Positions 1-4,208 of a DNA stretch of 4,208 nucleotides are shown in pieces. Each line of letters begins with the position of its first letter. The stretch's first letter is position 1. The position numbers and the translations under genes are program-made. Source of the DNA: a virus (Duplodnaviria; Heunggongvirae; Uroviricota; Caudoviricetes); IMG/VR virus record IMGVR_UViG_2690316348_000006; one strand, given 5' to 3'. The notes under the pieces were generated by a model. That model was not told where the DNA came from. It did no database searches and was given only the letters and a program-made list of their open reading frames with translations.

Positions 1-162
1 GTTGGGTTTTTCTGCTCATTATTAGCTCCTTCTGATGCCATTCTATTTCAGGAAGGAGTGTCCGTTAAACTCAGGCTACCTCAATCTAAATACTGATCTC
101 CCCCTCGCCAAAAACGAGCGTCTAAAAAATTCGAGCCGGAGGCTATTGAGCTGCCCGATTGG

Positions 163-432
163 TTGCCGGAAACACTCTGGCATGAGTGGGTCCGGTTCAG
201 ACAGGCATTGCGAAAACCGATTCGAACGGAGCAGGGCGCTAACGGGGCGATACGGGAACTGGAAAAATTCCGTCAGCAGGGTTTTACACCTGAGCAGGTG
301 ATTCGACACAGCATCGCCAATGAATACCAGGGCCTGTTCGCGCCGAAAGGTGTTCGGCCTGAGACGTTGCTCCGACAGGTTAACACCGTCTCGTTGCCGG
401 ACAGTGCGATCCCGCCAGGCTTCAGGGGGTAA
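163..432 (+). CDS. Replication initiation protein fragment (O-like / DnaT-like C-terminal domain), probably a 5'-truncated remnant. Frame is open from 97 to 432 but has no ATG; candidate starts are only CTG 151 or TTG 163.
   Basis: Frame-1 ORF ends at TAA 430-432, 6 nt before the DnaC-like start, the usual initiator-loader arrangement. The translation (LPDWLPETLWHEWVRFRQALRKPIRTEQG...FTPEQVIRHSIANEYQGLF) resembles, from memory, the conserved C-terminal domain of phage replication initiators. All three + frames carry stops within the first 96 nt (23-25, 33-35, 94-96), so no long gene enters from upstream. Confidence 0.45.
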   Translation: MPETLWHEWVRFRQALRKPIRTEQGANGAIRELEKFRQQGFTPEQVIRHSIANEYQGLFAPKGVRPETLLRQVNTVSLPDSAIPPGFRG

Positions 433-438
433 CGGACC

Positions 439-1185
439 ATGAAAAATATTGCGACAGGCGGCGTTCTGGAACGCATCCGCCGACTGACCCCGCCACATGT
501 AACCGCCCCATTCAGAACGGTAGCGGAGTGGCGCGAGTGGCAACTTGCTGAAGGCCAGAAACGTAGCGAGGAGATCAACCGCCTGAATCGCCAGTTGCGG
601 GTGGAAAAAATTCTGAATCGCTCAGGCATCCAGCCGTTGCACCGTAAATGCTCGTTTGCGAATTACCAGGTGCAGAACGACGGCCAGCGATACGCGTTAA
701 GCCAGGCGAAATCCATCGCCGATGAACTGATGACCGGGTGTACAAATTTTGCGTTCAGCGGAAAACCTGGTACCGGGAAGAACCACTTAGCGGCAGCTAT
801 CGGGAATCGCCTGCTGAAAGACGGTCAGACAGTGATTGTGGTTACCGTGGCTGATGTTATGAGCGCCCTGCACGCCAGCTATGACGACGGGCAGTCAGGC
901 GAAAAATTTTTGCGGGAGCTGTGCGAAGTGGATCTGCTGGTTCTTGATGAAATTGGCATTCAGCGCGAGACGAAAAACGAGCAGGTGGTGCTGCACCAGA
1001 TTGTTGATCGCCGGACAGCGTCGATGCGCAGCGTGGGGATGCTGACAAACCTGAACTATGAGGTGATGAAAACATTGCTCGGCGAGCGGGTGATGGATCG
1101 CATGGTCATGAACGGCGGGCGCTGGGTGAATTTTAACTGGGAGAGCTGGCGTCCGAATGTTAGCCATTCGAGGGTTGTTAAGTAG
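439..1185 (+). CDS. DnaC-family replicative helicase loader (phage replication protein, lambda P functional analog)
   Basis: 248-aa ORF with strong similarity, recalled from memory, to E. coli DnaC along its length. Walker A is FSGKPGTGKNHLAAAIG (about nt 754-804) and Walker B is LLVLDEIG; the C-terminal GERVMDRM motif is present. G-rich stretch upstream of the ATG; sits directly after the initiator fragment. Confidence 0.92.
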   Translation: MKNIATGGVLERIRRLTPPHVTAPFRTVAEWREWQLAEGQKRSEEINRLNRQLRVEKILNRSGIQPLHRKCSFANYQVQNDGQRYALSQAKSIADELMTGCTNFAFSGKPGTGKNHLAAAIGNRLLKDGQTVIVVTVADVMSALHASYDDGQSGEKFLRELCEVDLLVLDEIGIQRETKNEQVVLHQIVDRRTASMRSVGMLTNLNYEVMKTLLGERVMDRMVMNGGRWVNFNWESWRPNVSHSRVVK

Positions 1186-1199
1186 TTTCAGGAGGATTT

Positions 1200-1622
1200 A
1201 TGGCGAAACCTTTTACTCCCGAACAGCGGGAAGAACTGAAGACGCGAATTGTGGAACTCGTGCATCAGGACGGTCGGGTCACGATTCGGCAGTTGTCAGA
1301 TGAAACAGGTATCAGTCGTGCGTCTGTCGGTCGCTTATGCATAGAACTGGTCGCAAGTGGTGATGTATATAATTCTGGCTACGGCTTATTCCCGTCTGAA
1401 CAGGCTCGCAAGGACTGGCAAAGCGCCCGCAAAAAACTCTCGAGAGTAAAGGTGAGGAAACCGGTTGTTGTTGATCCGGACCTTATCTGGTCATTACCTG
1501 ACGGAGAAATACGCCGCTACGACAGGCGCCTGAATATAATCTGTCGCGAGTGCCGGAAGAGCGAAGCTATGCAGCGTGTACTGGCTTTCTATCAGGGTAA
1601 TTTTCAGGAGGCGATACTGTGA
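1200..1622 (+). CDS. Winged helix-turn-helix DNA-binding protein, function unknown
   Basis: 140-aa ORF with a strong SD (AGGAGG, 1189-1194) 5 nt upstream of the ATG. The N-terminus (RIVELVHQDGRVTIRQLSDETGISRASVGRLCIELVASGDV) has the pattern of a winged HTH. Stop TGA 1620-1622 abuts ATG 1623. Confidence 0.75.
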   Translation: MAKPFTPEQREELKTRIVELVHQDGRVTIRQLSDETGISRASVGRLCIELVASGDVYNSGYGLFPSEQARKDWQSARKKLSRVKVRKPVVVDPDLIWSLPDGEIRRYDRRLNIICRECRKSEAMQRVLAFYQGNFQEAIL

Positions 1623-1679
1623 ATGAAATTAGCTATCAGGCTTCAATTACCGCTGGCATTCGCATCAAAGGAGAGGAGC

Positions 1680-2036
1680 ATGGAAATAAAACCAGAAGAT
1701 GAGTTAAGCAATATTGTTTTATTTCCGGTAAAAGAGGATAACCCTCGTAATCAGGTTAATTTTCTTTATGAGCCATCGGAAAGACCATATTGCCATCACG
1801 CCTCTGTACGGGTTGACGAAAAAGAGCGTCAGGTCCGCTGTAAAATCTGCGGTGCGGTTGTGGAGCCGTTTGACTGGATGCTCTCTGTGGCAAAAAGAGA
1901 AACCAGACTGGCAGATGATGTAAGGCTATTGCGCCAGGAGGAACAGGAAAGGCGGAGAAATATAGAAAAGCTGATACAGATTGAGCGTAACGCGAAAGCG
2001 CGGATACGCAGGGCGACAAAATCCAGAACTGAATAA
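1680..2036 (+). CDS. Zn-ribbon plus coiled-coil protein, function unknown (alternative start ATG 1623 would add 19 aa)
   Basis: Open frame 1623-2036. ATG 1680 has a near-ideal SD (AGGAG, 1669-1673, 6-nt spacing). The protein has a C-x-HH ... C-x-x-C arrangement (PYCHHASV ... RCKICGAV) followed by a charged helical tail (RLLRQEEQERRRNIEKLIQIERNAKARIRR). Confidence 0.65.
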   Translation: MEIKPEDELSNIVLFPVKEDNPRNQVNFLYEPSERPYCHHASVRVDEKERQVRCKICGAVVEPFDWMLSVAKRETRLADDVRLLRQEEQERRRNIEKLIQIERNAKARIRRATKSRTE

Positions 2037-2183
2037 TTAAATTTAGCACTGTTAAAAATTTAATCCTTAACCGGAGGGATTTCTGCACCCTCAAATCATC
2101 AGGAGACCACCCGAAAGGGCGGGGAGCAGTCACACATCTGTTTCCGATAGCCCCGTTCTAATGCTACACTCTTTGATATTTTT

Positions 2184-2870
2184 ATGACCCCAATAAACAT
2201 ATTTATGACAGTTGCTGATTTCAAACGGCCCAAATTGGAGCTCCCAAACGGGGCAAACAAACTACTACTGCACTCTTGCTGTGCTCCATGTTCCGGTGAG
2301 GTGATGGAGGCGCTTCAGGCCTCGGGAATCGACTACACCATCTTTTTCTACAACCCGAACATTCATCCTCAGAAAGAGTATTTAATTCGTAAGGATGAGA
2401 ATATTCGCTTTGCTGAACAACACGGCGTGCCGTTTATTGATGCTGATTACGACACAGACAACTGGTTTGAACGAGCCAAAGGAATGGAATGGGAGCCCGA
2501 ACGAGGGATCCGTTGCACCATGTGTTTTGACATGCGTTTTGAGCGGACAGCGCTGTACGCCGCTGAAAATGGTTTCAGTGTGATCAGCAGTTCACTGGGC
2601 ATTTCACGCTGGAAAAATATGCAGCAGGTTAACGACTGTGGGCGGCGAGCCGTCGCGCATTATCCGGGCATGGTGTACTGGGATTATAACTGGCGCAAGC
2701 AGGGCGGCTCGTCCCGTATGATTGAAATCAGCAAGCGCGAAAAATTCTATCAGCAGGAATATTGTGGCTGTGTGTATTCTCTGCGCGATACCAATCTACA
2801 CCGCAAATCTCAGGGACGCCCTCTTATCAAAATTGGTCAACTCCACTACGGTAAAGAAGAGAAGGAGTGA
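2184..2870 (+). CDS. queH: QueH-like epoxyqueuosine reductase homolog (DUF208 family); alternative start ATG 2205
   Basis: 228-aa ORF with the N-terminal [11 protein letters not shown] motif (C32, C33, C36; nt 2277-2291) characteristic of QueH/DUF208 as recalled from memory, plus a later CxxC (C111, C114) and a CGC motif near the C-terminus. No obvious SD before either ATG. Preceded by a 147-nt intergenic gap after the replication-module operon. Confidence 0.8.
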
Positions 2871-2891
2871 TTTTATGGGGCACCTTTCTGA

Positions 2892-2921
2892 TTGATTTCA
2901 TATTGGCGAGGTAAGTAGAAT
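2892..2921 (+). promoter_or_regulatory. Putative sigma70 promoter of the hok/mok mRNA (-35 TTGATT 2892-2897, 18-nt spacer, -10 TAGAAT 2916-2921)
   Basis: Hexamers read directly from the sequence. The predicted start site (about 2927-2929) coincides with the 5' edge of the fold-back element at 2926-2939. Confidence 0.4.
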
Positions 2922-2925
2922 GACT

Positions 2926-2939
2926 GCGGGTGCTTGAGG
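2926..2939 (+). promoter_or_regulatory. hok mRNA 5' element (tac/fbi-like) complementary to the 3' end of the transcript
   Basis: GCGGGTGCTTGAGG (2926-2939) is complementary to CCTCAACGCACCCGC (3310-3324) with one bulged nucleotide, giving 14 bp. Next to it is a hairpin CTATCTGC(2940-2947)/GCAGATAG(2969-2976), analogous to the 5' hairpin of plasmid R1 hok mRNA as I recall it. Confidence 0.5.
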
Positions 2940-2976
2940 CTATCTGCTTCAGGCATGAACACCAAAAGGCAGATAG

Positions 2977-3047
2977 AGAAAAGCCCCAGTTAACATTACG
3001 CGTCCGGCAAGACGCTTAACATTAATCTGAGGCCAATTTCATGCTTT
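2977..3047 (-). ncRNA. sok: Sok-like antisense RNA (approximate boundaries)
   Basis: Minus-strand promoter candidate: -35 TTGCCT (complement of + 3079-3084), 17-bp spacer, -10 TAACCT (complement of + 3056-3061), start about 3047. The transcript would cover the mok SD (GAGG 3029-3032) and mok ATG (3041), contain a GCGTC/GACGC hairpin (3000-3015) and end in a U-rich tail (complement of AGAGAAAAG 2974-2982). Position matches the hok/sok paradigm; boundaries are inferred, not measured. Confidence 0.35.
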
Positions 3048-3253
3048 GCACATGTAGGTTAGCCTCTTACATGCCGAAAGGCAAGGAGAAGCAGGCTATG
3101 AAGCAGCAAAAGGCGATGTTAATCGCCCTGATCGTCATCTGTTTAACCGTCATAGTGACGGCACTGGTAACGAGGAAAGACCTCTGTGAGGTACGAATCC
3201 GAACCGGCCAGACGGAGGTCGCTGTCTTCGTAGACTACGAATCCAGGAAGTAA
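3041..3253 (+). CDS. mok: mok-like upstream reading frame, in frame with hok and starting 57 nt upstream (modulation of killing)
   Basis: ATG 3041 is preceded by GAGG (3029-3032) and shares the hok stop. The 57-nt in-frame extension mirrors how chromosomal mok/hok pairs are annotated in E. coli K-12, as I recall. Whether it is translated cannot be told from sequence. Confidence 0.4.
   Translation: MLCTCRLASYMPKGKEKQAMKQQKAMLIALIVICLTVIVTALVTRKDLCEVRIRTGQTEVAVFVDYESRK
3098..3253 (+). CDS. hok: Hok/Gef-family membrane toxin (type I toxin), 51 aa, closest to HokD/RelF-type
   Basis: Translation MKQQKAMLIALIVICLTVIVTALVTRKDLCEVRIRTGQTEVAVFVDYESRK matches, from memory, E. coli HokD almost exactly except for the last ~7 residues. 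SD AAGGAGAAG (3082-3090) sits 7 nt before the ATG. Has the single transmembrane helix and conserved Cys typical of Hok. Confidence 0.9.
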   Translation: MKQQKAMLIALIVICLTVIVTALVTRKDLCEVRIRTGQTEVAVFVDYESRK

Positions 3254-3309
3254 GAGTGACCGGGCGGGGAGCTGATCCCATCCCCGCCCACCTCTGATGT
3301 GTCAGGCAT

Positions 3310-3324
3310 CCTCAACGCACCCGC
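3310..3324 (+). promoter_or_regulatory. hok mRNA 3' fold-back-inhibition (fbi-like) element pairing with 2926-2939
   Basis: CCTCAACGCACCCGC is the reverse complement of the 5' element apart from one bulge. It lies between the hok stop and the terminator. CCCGC-type motifs recur at 3283-3290 and 3331-3338. Confidence 0.5.
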
Positions 3325-3330
3325 ACTTAA

Positions 3331-3376
3331 CCCGCCCATCGCTGTGATCTCTCAGCGTTTCGGCGGGTTTTTTGTT
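3331..3376 (+). terminator. Rho-independent terminator of the hok transcript
   Basis: Two-tier stem: CCCGCC (3331-3336) pairs with GGCGGG (3362-3367), and an inner CGCTG (3340-3344) pairs with CAGCG (3353-3357). Followed by TTTTTTGTTGTTT (3368-3380). Confidence 0.6.
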
Positions 3377-3393
3377 GTTTATTTCCGGTGAAT

Positions 3394-3421
3394 TTGATTC
3401 GCGCACCTTCGCAGATAGAAT
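3394..3421 (+). promoter_or_regulatory. Putative sigma70 promoter for the downstream ORFs (-35 TTGATT 3394-3399, 16-nt spacer, -10 TAGAAT 3416-3421)
   Basis: Hexamers read directly from the sequence. Lies just after the hok terminator and about 80 nt upstream of ATG 3503. The hexamers and the following GACT resemble the hok promoter at 2892-2925. Confidence 0.3.
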
Positions 3422-3502
3422 CGACTCACTTAAGTAGCGCGCAGGGAGAAGAGGGATGGACCCCGAACAGGGGAGAGCTATTTATCTGGAAGGATTCTGA
3501 AG

Positions 3503-3790
3503 ATGAAAATCGAAGAATTGCGTGAAATTTTTAGTGAAAATGGCCTCTATGCTGTGCGCGTTGAGAATGGAGCGATTGTCAGCCATTGCCGCATTAGATG
3601 TTTGCAATCTCAACAAAGGAAGAGCGGTGCTGTGTTATTTTATTTTTGTAATGGACTTCTGACGGACGGTTTTATTTTGCGTGAGGACGAATTTGTCACA
3701 TCATTACGGGTTTTGAAAGAGATTGGTTTTAAGGCTGGTTTTCTGCTTTTGCTGAAGAATAAACTCATCTACAATCTTGAGCAGGATTGA
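3503..3790 (+). CDS. Hypothetical protein, 95 aa, AT-rich orphan ORF
   Basis: ATG 3503 is preceded by GGAAGGA (3488-3494). Base composition is visibly more AT-rich than neighbouring genes. The C-terminal half is hydrophobic (GFKAGFLLLLKNKLIY). No family recognised. Confidence 0.5.
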   Translation: MKIEELREIFSENGLYAVRVENGAIVSHCRIRCLQSQQRKSGAVLFYFCNGLLTDGFILREDEFVTSLRVLKEIGFKAGFLLLLKNKLIYNLEQD

Positions 3791-3828
3791 ACTCCTGCTG
3801 TGTAACACCGTGCCACCGGAGAAAGCCG

Positions 3829-4182
3829 ATGGCACATATACAACTGGTCAAACAAACCTCTTCCGGATTACTTCTCCCGGCGACGCCGGAGAGTTGCGAT
3901 TTTCTGCATCAAATCAAAATAGGTGAGTGGATACACGCAGACTTTAAGCGTGTGTGTAACTACGCATTCCACAAGCGTTTTTTCAAACTCCTGCAACTGG
4001 GTTTCGATTACTGGACTCCGGTCGGTGGGGCGATCACGCCTCGCGAACGAAAACTGGTGTCCGGTTTCGTTGATTACCTGTGTGAATCAGTAGGCCGGGA
4101 ACATACGCCAGCTCTGAGCGAAGCCGCAGAGCAATTGAGGTGTACTGGCAATAGCGGACACTACCATTTGTTCTTTTTTTAA
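3829..4182 (+). CDS. Conserved lambdoid nin-region protein, probably YbcN/DUF1367-like, apparently C-terminally short (117 aa)
   Basis: ATG 3829 is preceded by GGAGAAA (3817-3823); the ORF-track start at 3787 is a TTG and is less likely. The motif block HADFKRVCNYAFHKRFFKLLQLGFDYWTPVGGAITPRERKLV resembles, from memory, the N-terminal region of YbcN-like proteins. The ORF ends in an atypical tail (RCTGNSGHYHLFFF) 26 nt before the window edge. Confidence 0.55.
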   Translation: MAHIQLVKQTSSGLLLPATPESCDFLHQIKIGEWIHADFKRVCNYAFHKRFFKLLQLGFDYWTPVGGAITPRERKLVSGFVDYLCESVGREHTPALSEAAEQLRCTGNSGHYHLFFF

Positions 4183-4208
4183 GCAGCCATCTGATGATAT
4201 TTTTCCCT

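Follow-up and report, generated by a model that had tools for sequence, protein, structure and literature searches.

The question raised by this locus is why a lambdoid prophage should carry a gene for the last step of queuosine (Q) synthesis in tRNA, a step for which its Escherichia coli host has an enzyme of its own. The gene lies in a 4,208-nt stretch of DNA from a Caudoviricetes record of IMG/VR (IMGVR_UViG_2690316348_000006), which we call, at its full length, the window, and it occupies positions 2184 to 2870 of the + strand. The original prediction, made from the letters alone, took it for a homolog of the epoxyqueuosine reductase QueH (DUF208) carried as a prophage moron. Our analyses revealed that, judged by its sequence, the gene codes for an ordinary QueH and is already so named in RefSeq. 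The reading that we favor, with a rough probability of 0.62, is that it specifies a functional canonical QueH, captured together with its own promoter and expressed in lysogens as a cobalamin-independent backup to the host enzyme QueG.

QueH converts epoxyqueuosine (oQ) at position 34 to Q by means of a [4Fe-4S] cluster and an adjacent metal, independently of cobalamin, and Q is found at position 34 of tRNA-Asp, tRNA-Asn, tRNA-His and tRNA-Tyr. The tgt and queA genes belong to the core genes of E. coli, which has no de novo cobalamin synthesis. In work by Zallot in 2017, DUF208 genes reportedly complemented an E. coli queG mutant, and Q was said to be lost from A. baylyi only upon deletion of both genes. 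The QueG step in E. coli is cobalamin dependent (PMC4646009, citing Frey 1988), and QueG is among the few cobamide-dependent enzymes of the species (PMC11841063).

The open reading frame (ORF) at 2184-2870 is intact and would encode 228 aa if read from its first ATG. Three cysteine motifs can be read in its translation, CCAPC (residues 32-36), C-T-M-C (111-114) and C-G-C (194-196), and they correspond to the CCAPC, CxxC and CGC on which the original prediction was built. The protein probably starts at a later ATG, which gives the following coding sequence (CDS):

2205..2870, + strand: queH CDS, 221 aa, epoxyqueuosine reductase QueH, from its probable true start; supported by PF02677, 7lc5, Foldseek and the Prokaryotic Genome Annotation Pipeline (PGAP; WP_012421537.1, identical coordinates)

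The original prediction had called for a profile search and a comparison with known QueH structures, and both bore it out. The search gave a full-length match to PF02677 (QueH/DUF208, IPR003828; E = 1.9e-65) that scored 220.6 bits, where the gathering cutoff is 23.5, and spanned profile positions 1-174 of 175. An AlphaFold model built from 32 homologs (predicted local distance difference test score 77, predicted template modeling score 0.77) was compared with the PDB by Foldseek; ranks 1 to 5 were all QueH entries (template modeling score 0.59 when query-normalised and 0.71 when target-normalised, probability 1.0), and TtuA-type adenine-nucleotide-alpha-hydrolase enzymes ranked after them. At the sequence level the PDB match was 7lc5, the QueH of T. 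maritima (E = 5e-22, residues 27-203), whose entries are the sole solved relatives. No NCBIfam model matched the protein, and PGAP's QueH name therefore rests on other evidence.

Compared with the crystallised T. maritima enzyme (PDB 7LC5, 7LC7 and 9DEU), the prophage protein is alike in its full-length domain, its predicted fold and its six cysteines (CC, CxxC and CGC). These residues, C32, C33, C111, C114, C194 and C196, did not vary when the protein was aligned with ten homologs, T. maritima QueH among them, in keeping with the expectation that the active-site cysteines would be retained. The two proteins differ, at 33% identity, in that the prophage protein has Cys36 at the position of T. 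maritima Asp13, the residue mutated by the depositors of 9DCO (D13N). At its C-terminus the prophage protein also carries a tail, conserved and basic (residues ~201-222), outside the aligned T. maritima segment, and it differs in its prophage location. Cysteine is the majority residue of the family at position 36: when the 150 best 50%-identity cluster representatives were surveyed, 113 bore the motif, which read CC[AGS]PC in 109 and CCAPD in 3. Some of the QueH cluster representatives have the domain at the C-terminal end of proteins of 719-1398 aa.

How the gene would be expressed depends on where its protein begins and what precedes it. The following features lie directly upstream of the CDS:

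2184..2204, + strand: in-frame upstream ATG and 7 codons, probably 5' untranslated region (UTR); missing from the chromosomal homologs, and the place where allele variation clusters

2162..2170, + strand: extended -10-like motif TGcTACACT (TGCTACACT), with its hexamer at 2165-2170; conserved across genera

2142-2147, + strand: weak -35 candidate TTCCGA

The true start is probably ATG 2205, which gives 221 aa, because the N-termini of the chromosomal homologs align to Met8, RefSeq and PGAP start the protein there, and the few amino-acid changes among 81 prophage copies are grouped in residues 2-10. As had been stated earlier, the 228-aa ORF is preceded by a gap of its own, of 147 nt (2037-2183), and inspection of the sequence found no purine-rich Shine-Dalgarno (SD) sequence before ATG 2184 or ATG 2205. 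ATG 2184 follows the conserved -10-like hexamer by just 13 nt, and it would lie within a predicted 5' UTR of ~27 nt. We aligned the 110 nt before the start from eight loci, namely the window, E. albertii and the chromosomal loci of Scandinavium, Kluyvera, three Enterobacter and Symbiopectobacterium. The sole block common to the eight upstream regions was TGCTACA(A/C)T, which stands 34-35 nt before the ATG in all of them; in the window, TGcTACACT occurs once against an expectation of 0.02. Because this motif is conserved at a fixed distance while the flanks are otherwise unrelated, the alignment suggests that queH carried its native promoter into the prophage.

The relatives of the gene point to where it was captured. 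At the species level, E. albertii QueH is 99% identical and sits in the same prophage context, and the chromosomal proteins of Scandinavium, Kluyvera and Enterobacter are 92%, 91% and 89-90% identical; those of Erwinia, Providencia, Proteus, Serratia and Photorhabdus are likewise chromosomal, at 79-86% identity. The subfamily is unusually conserved, members from many gamma-, beta- and alpha-proteobacteria being at 75-87% amino-acid identity. Except in E. albertii, the phage neighbours of the window were absent at the relatives' loci, the nine that were inspected being mostly ordinary chromosomal neighbourhoods. Because the close relatives sit in such neighbourhoods, the prophage gene appears to derive from a housekeeping queH of enterobacteria, captured recently. 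Indeed, chromosomal Enterobacterales QueH is near-identical to the prophage copy in length and sequence and has both TGCTACA(A/C)T and the SD-less leader in common with it. The two differ in their surroundings, which are variable and non-phage for the chromosomal genes, whereas in E. coli and E. albertii the prophage copy is joined to hok/sok within lambdoid prophages. Odd taxa also appeared among the relatives, a Bacillus subtilis contig and a 'Candidatus Avacidaminococcus' metagenome-assembled genome, both of which look like contamination or recent transfer.

This kinship bears on the alternative that the original prediction had offered, recruitment to another substrate such as a 7-deazaguanine-related nucleic-acid modification, or an anti-defence role. 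We took it in a wider form, in which the enzyme would reduce an epoxy-7-deazaguanine of DNA, the phage's or the host's, or would serve defence or anti-defence. Phages do use 7-deazaguanine chemistry on DNA (PMC6884629), and the queH region is rich in exclusion and toxin-antitoxin genes. The phage proteins FolE, QueD, QueE, QueC and DpdA, which resemble the product of prophage queH in being phage-borne and engaged in queuosine-related chemistry, make preQ0-type bases and place them in phage DNA, whereas prophage queH represents the tRNA-specific last step alone. The proposal found no support in the genomes at hand: the annotations of the complete prophage of E. coli FDAARGOS_944 (described below) and of the temperate Escherichia phage HannyBb contain no dpdA/tgt-like transglycosylase, queA, queC/D/E or folE, and PADLOC gave no match to QueH. 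Moreover, with 79-92% identity to housekeeping chromosomal QueH there is little room for a new specificity. We know of no report of oQ in DNA. This alternative strikes us as extremely improbable.

All 81 full-length queH copies in the retrieved viral-contig loci were intact; they comprise 19 nucleotide alleles and 7 protein variants. The window allele differs from the commonest allele by 19 synonymous and 3 non-synonymous changes (dS = 0.149, dN = 0.0055, dN/dS = 0.037), and strong purifying selection acts on the QueH protein. Of 5426 complete E. coli genomes, 995 contained the gene (18%; 985 at a coverage of at least 80%), almost always as a single chromosomal copy that PGAP names 'epoxyqueuosine reductase QueH'. 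By comparison, queG was found in 5426 of the 5426, which agrees with the earlier statement that E. coli-type hosts normally use QueG and means that each queH-positive E. coli strain has two non-homologous oQ reductase genes. QueG is predicted to catalyze the same reaction on the same tRNAs as QueH and is present in every genome with a prophage queH; it differs in its lack of homology to QueH, in its requirement for cobalamin (PMC4646009) and in being a core chromosomal gene. About 1 in 5 sequenced E. coli genomes have this phage-delivered second oQ-reducing enzyme, including sequence type 131 (ST131), O157:H7, enteroaggregative E. coli 042, avian pathogenic E. coli O1 and Shigella-like strains.

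In most loci queH belongs to a cassette that ends with a hok/sok locus, and its parts in the window are as follows:

2134..2183, + strand: conserved upstream block, left cassette edge; similarity to the window begins at 2134 in most of 80 viral-contig loci

2892..2921, + strand: promoter-like site of the hok mRNA, TTGATT-18-TAGAAT, 22 nt past the queH stop codon

2928..3103, + strand: leader of the hok mRNA with the sok antisense region; matched by Rfam RF01794 at 117 bits, E = 3.6e-27

3098..3253, + strand: hokD-type toxin CDS, with a longer mok-like ORF from 3041; Pfam HOK_GEF 9.8e-23, and PGAP hokD at the same position

3329..3381, + strand: G+C-rich hairpin followed by a U-run, right cassette end; the fold of 3255-3385 has -50.3 kcal/mol, z = -4.0

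Typically, the 80 IMG/VR loci resemble the window from 2134 to 3033 or 3335, which corresponds to queH plus hok/sok, and in most loci the resemblance stops at 3333-3335. The sequence left of 2134 is of several unrelated types while the cassette edge itself is constant. A divergent queH allele with 93% nucleotide identity (NZ_CP172169.1 2001116-2001784) lies in a Rac-like prophage beside trkG; a DUF1971 gene is encoded there on the other strand, and hok is not adjacent. The queH-hok linkage is therefore common, not obligatory.

Such linkage could mean that queH is a neutral passenger, active or semi-active and without benefit, that persists through hok/sok addiction and a successful prophage backbone. 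In nearly all loci queH and hok/sok are conserved together as a single block, queG supplies the activity in every genome and queH occurs in just 18% of genomes, all of which would fit a passenger. However, the dN/dS of 0.037 at a dS of ~0.15, together with 0 of 81 copies disrupted, shows sustained selection on the protein itself, beyond the linked DNA, and the 93%-identical allele of the Rac-like prophage has no hok next to it. Chromosomal hok loci, moreover, are generally considered poor addiction modules. We consider a mere passenger quite unlikely.

The wider setting of the cassette is seen in E. coli FDAARGOS_944, where a complete lambdoid prophage, inserted between ybhA and pgl (NZ_CP065613.1 4286289-4329172), matches window positions 99-4135 at 99.8%. 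The left part of this prophage reads int, xis; cI-like repressor, cro, ydaT; O-like gene, ydaV, DUF977, a hypothetical gene; QueH and hokD. The right part continues with a hypothetical gene, DUF1367, DUF1364 and DUF1133, four tRNA genes, the lysis, head and tail genes, and ipaHb. The tRNA genes, which follow the Q-like region, are those for Ile, Arg, Thr and Gly, and ipaHb, at the right end, encodes a type III secretion system effector. The presence of ipaHb in this sister prophage points to a host of the Shigella or enteroinvasive E. coli (EIEC) type; the record itself is labelled E. coli. A Qin-like prophage of ST131 has the same arrangement, and in a related prophage DUF4014/DUF551 genes fill the slot in place of queH. 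Since PHROGs classes DUF977 as Ren-like and DUF1367 as NinB/Orf-like, the slot that queH occupies is, by gene content, the classical ren/ninB (nin-type) slot of a Rac/Qin-like lambdoid prophage. The gene had been placed between the replication module and a hok/sok locus, and so it stands, with a DnaC-like loader upstream and the RF01794 and HOK_GEF matches downstream.

The label of prophage-borne cargo likewise stands, both by this variable slot and by the occurrence of the gene in an isolated phage. Among deposited phage genomes the sole bona fide carrier is HannyBb, whose QueH (96.5% identity) is annotated as hypothetical; most matches of a tblastn search of the phage collection were unannotated faecal-metagenome fragments labelled 'Bacteriophage sp.', and one other record was inspected. 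'Acinetobacter phage MD-2021a' (CAKLQH020000001.1, 328 kb) was rejected as a phage carrier because bacterial chromosome surrounds its QueH (soxR, cynX, tadA). That record labels QueH a 'putative prophage protein', apparently by annotation transfer from E. coli prophage copies.

The status of moron fared less uniformly. Like lambdoid morons and nin-region genes, queH lies in a variable slot between modules, flanked by ren-like and ninB-like genes, is polymorphic for presence and absence, and has a conserved promoter-like element. It differs from morons in having no terminator of its own before hok and no distinct base composition, the GC fraction being 0.47-0.52 across queH against 0.44-0.56 around it, which gives no island signal.

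The same context could be read as that of a gene serving the phage. QueH would then be transcribed as a delayed-early gene from pR during lytic growth, topping up Q on host tRNA to the benefit of the NAU/NAC codons in phage genes, or maturing new tRNA during the burst. The gene is co-oriented within the early rightward operon, from the replication genes to the Q-type antiterminator, the scan found no terminator parting it from its neighbours, and HannyBb, an isolated phage, carries it; the prophages also carry tRNA genes, so that translation-related cargo is common. Yet none of the prophage tRNAs is a Q-tRNA, and the conserved native promoter motif favors expression independent of pR. The gene has also stayed intact under purifying selection in the window, an insertion sequence-bracketed remnant that is incapable of lytic growth, and a single infection cycle is too short for a change in tRNA modification to count for much. 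On balance we regard a role in lytic growth as unlikely as the explanation of the gene, although roles serving phage and host are compatible and not mutually exclusive.

For the prophage queH, the analysis establishes what the gene is, that it is intact and under purifying selection, where it sits and that queG accompanies it. From these facts we infer promoter activity, expression in the lysogen, enzymatic activity and a fitness benefit, as follows. The gene would have been captured from an enterobacterial chromosome with a weak extended -10 promoter and a short SD-less leader, and would since have traveled as accessory cargo joined to hok/sok in the ren/ninB slot of Rac/Qin-like prophages. 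Because it appears to have its own promoter, transcription from that promoter in a repressed lysogen is probable. The enzyme would act on host tRNA-Asp, tRNA-Asn, tRNA-His and tRNA-Tyr and duplicate the activity of cobalamin-dependent QueG. The likely benefit would be Q maturation freed from imported vitamin B12, since E. coli cannot make cobalamin de novo.

Several points weigh against our favored reading. The candidate promoter, which emerged solely from the comparison across genera, is weak by consensus, with 7 of 12 positions plus the TG, below the scan threshold, and the consensus promoter scan called no + strand promoter upstream of queH. The absence of an SD sequence means that expression of queH may be very low. 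An Rfam search of the whole window at E <= 1 returned sok only, with no cobalamin or preQ1 riboswitch and no other element upstream of queH; nothing therefore ties expression to B12 status. The terminator scan found no terminator-like site between queH and hok (2870-2928), the first being the hairpin at 3329-3381. It follows that a queH transcript would run into the hok mRNA leader and lengthen its structured 5' end, and that queH falls short of the full definition of a moron. With Cys36 in place of the Asp13 of the crystallised enzyme, mechanistic details may differ from the structural model. More generally, the activity, expression and phenotype of this QueH are predicted ones. The gut is generally cobamide-rich, so that QueG is only assumed to run short of B12 in nature, and oQ may function as well as Q in decoding.

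A bolder version of the favored reading makes prophage queH a lysogenic-conversion gene that uncouples Q maturation from cobalamin supply and BtuB uptake, a proposal that we hold tentatively and rate as doubtful. If it were true, lysogens could keep fully Q-modified tRNA in corrinoid-poor niches, such as that of intracellular Shigella/EIEC, in which virulence regulators are reported to depend on Q for their translation. They could also keep it after loss or repression of BtuB, which is a receptor for phages and colicins. In either setting a measurable effect on fitness or virulence would be expected.

In the survey of Hutinet et al. 2019, homologs of QueA, QueG and QueH were not found in the viruses analysed (PMC6884629). 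Our full-text literature search turned up nothing on QueH in a phage or prophage; several matches were artefacts of author names or DUF numbers, and those for E. coli dealt with queG. The enzyme itself is known and RefSeq-named; its role as phage cargo is new to the literature searched. The description of the function as under-described thus holds for papers and for PHROGs, and it fails for RefSeq, which names QueH in about 1000 complete genomes. The PHROGs family of QueH, phrog_3217, is of 'unknown function', and its match covers residues 34-221 only. The profile begins at an internal Met and therefore does not include CCAPC, through which phage annotation pipelines may miss QueH. If the gene is active in lysogens, the Q status of E. 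coli would be strain-dependent under B12-free conditions, which would bear on tRNA-modification, codon-bias and virulence-translation experiments in K-12, a strain without queH. Prophage queH would also provide a clean case of a phage-carried tRNA-modification enzyme as host-benefiting cargo, a class unseen in the 2019 survey of viral Q and 7-deazaguanine genes.

The rest of the window is made up of the flanking prophage genes and the ends of two IS600 copies:

1..83, + strand: right end of an IS600 copy; the same 83 nt closes the 1265-bp element of a related locus (L005), and PGAP gives IS3-like IS600 family transposase

84-432: O-like gene, truncated by IS600

439..1185, + strand: DnaC-like helicase loader, ydaV type; NCBIfam PRK12377, 510 bits

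1200..1622, + strand: DUF977 / Ren-like gene, the usual left neighbour of queH; Pfam DUF977 1.1e-33, phrog_142 Ren-like, synteny

1623..2036, + strand: Zn-ribbon hypothetical gene; PGAP start 1680, phrog_1621, weak TFIIB zinc-ribbon match

3829..4134, + strand: NinB/Orf-like DUF1367 gene, cut by IS600; Pfam DUF1367 1.5e-46, phrog_319

4135..4208, + strand: second IS600 copy, represented by its left end and oriented like the first

With IS600 ends in the same orientation at both of its edges, the window represents a 4.05-kb prophage remnant in which queH and hok are still intact. The DUF1367 gene is uncut, at 600 bp, in the sister prophage of FDAARGOS_944, and in L005 the left IS600 is positioned 328 bp further upstream. 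The IS600 load, together with ipaHb in the sister prophage, indicates that the source genome of the window is probably rich in insertion sequences and Shigella/EIEC-like. The Zn-ribbon gene is restricted to prophages of the window type, and elsewhere, in most loci, the queH cassette comes straight after DUF977.

Between the Zn-ribbon gene and the cassette lies an unannotated intergenic block of 83 nt (2040-2122) that recurs at 89-94% identity in Stx2a-converting phages, ArgO145, Rac-SA53 and others, where it likewise lies between early-region genes in unannotated intergenic DNA. Its RNA fold was no better than that of shuffled sequence (z = -0.95), and the block is possibly a recombination or mosaic-junction sequence.

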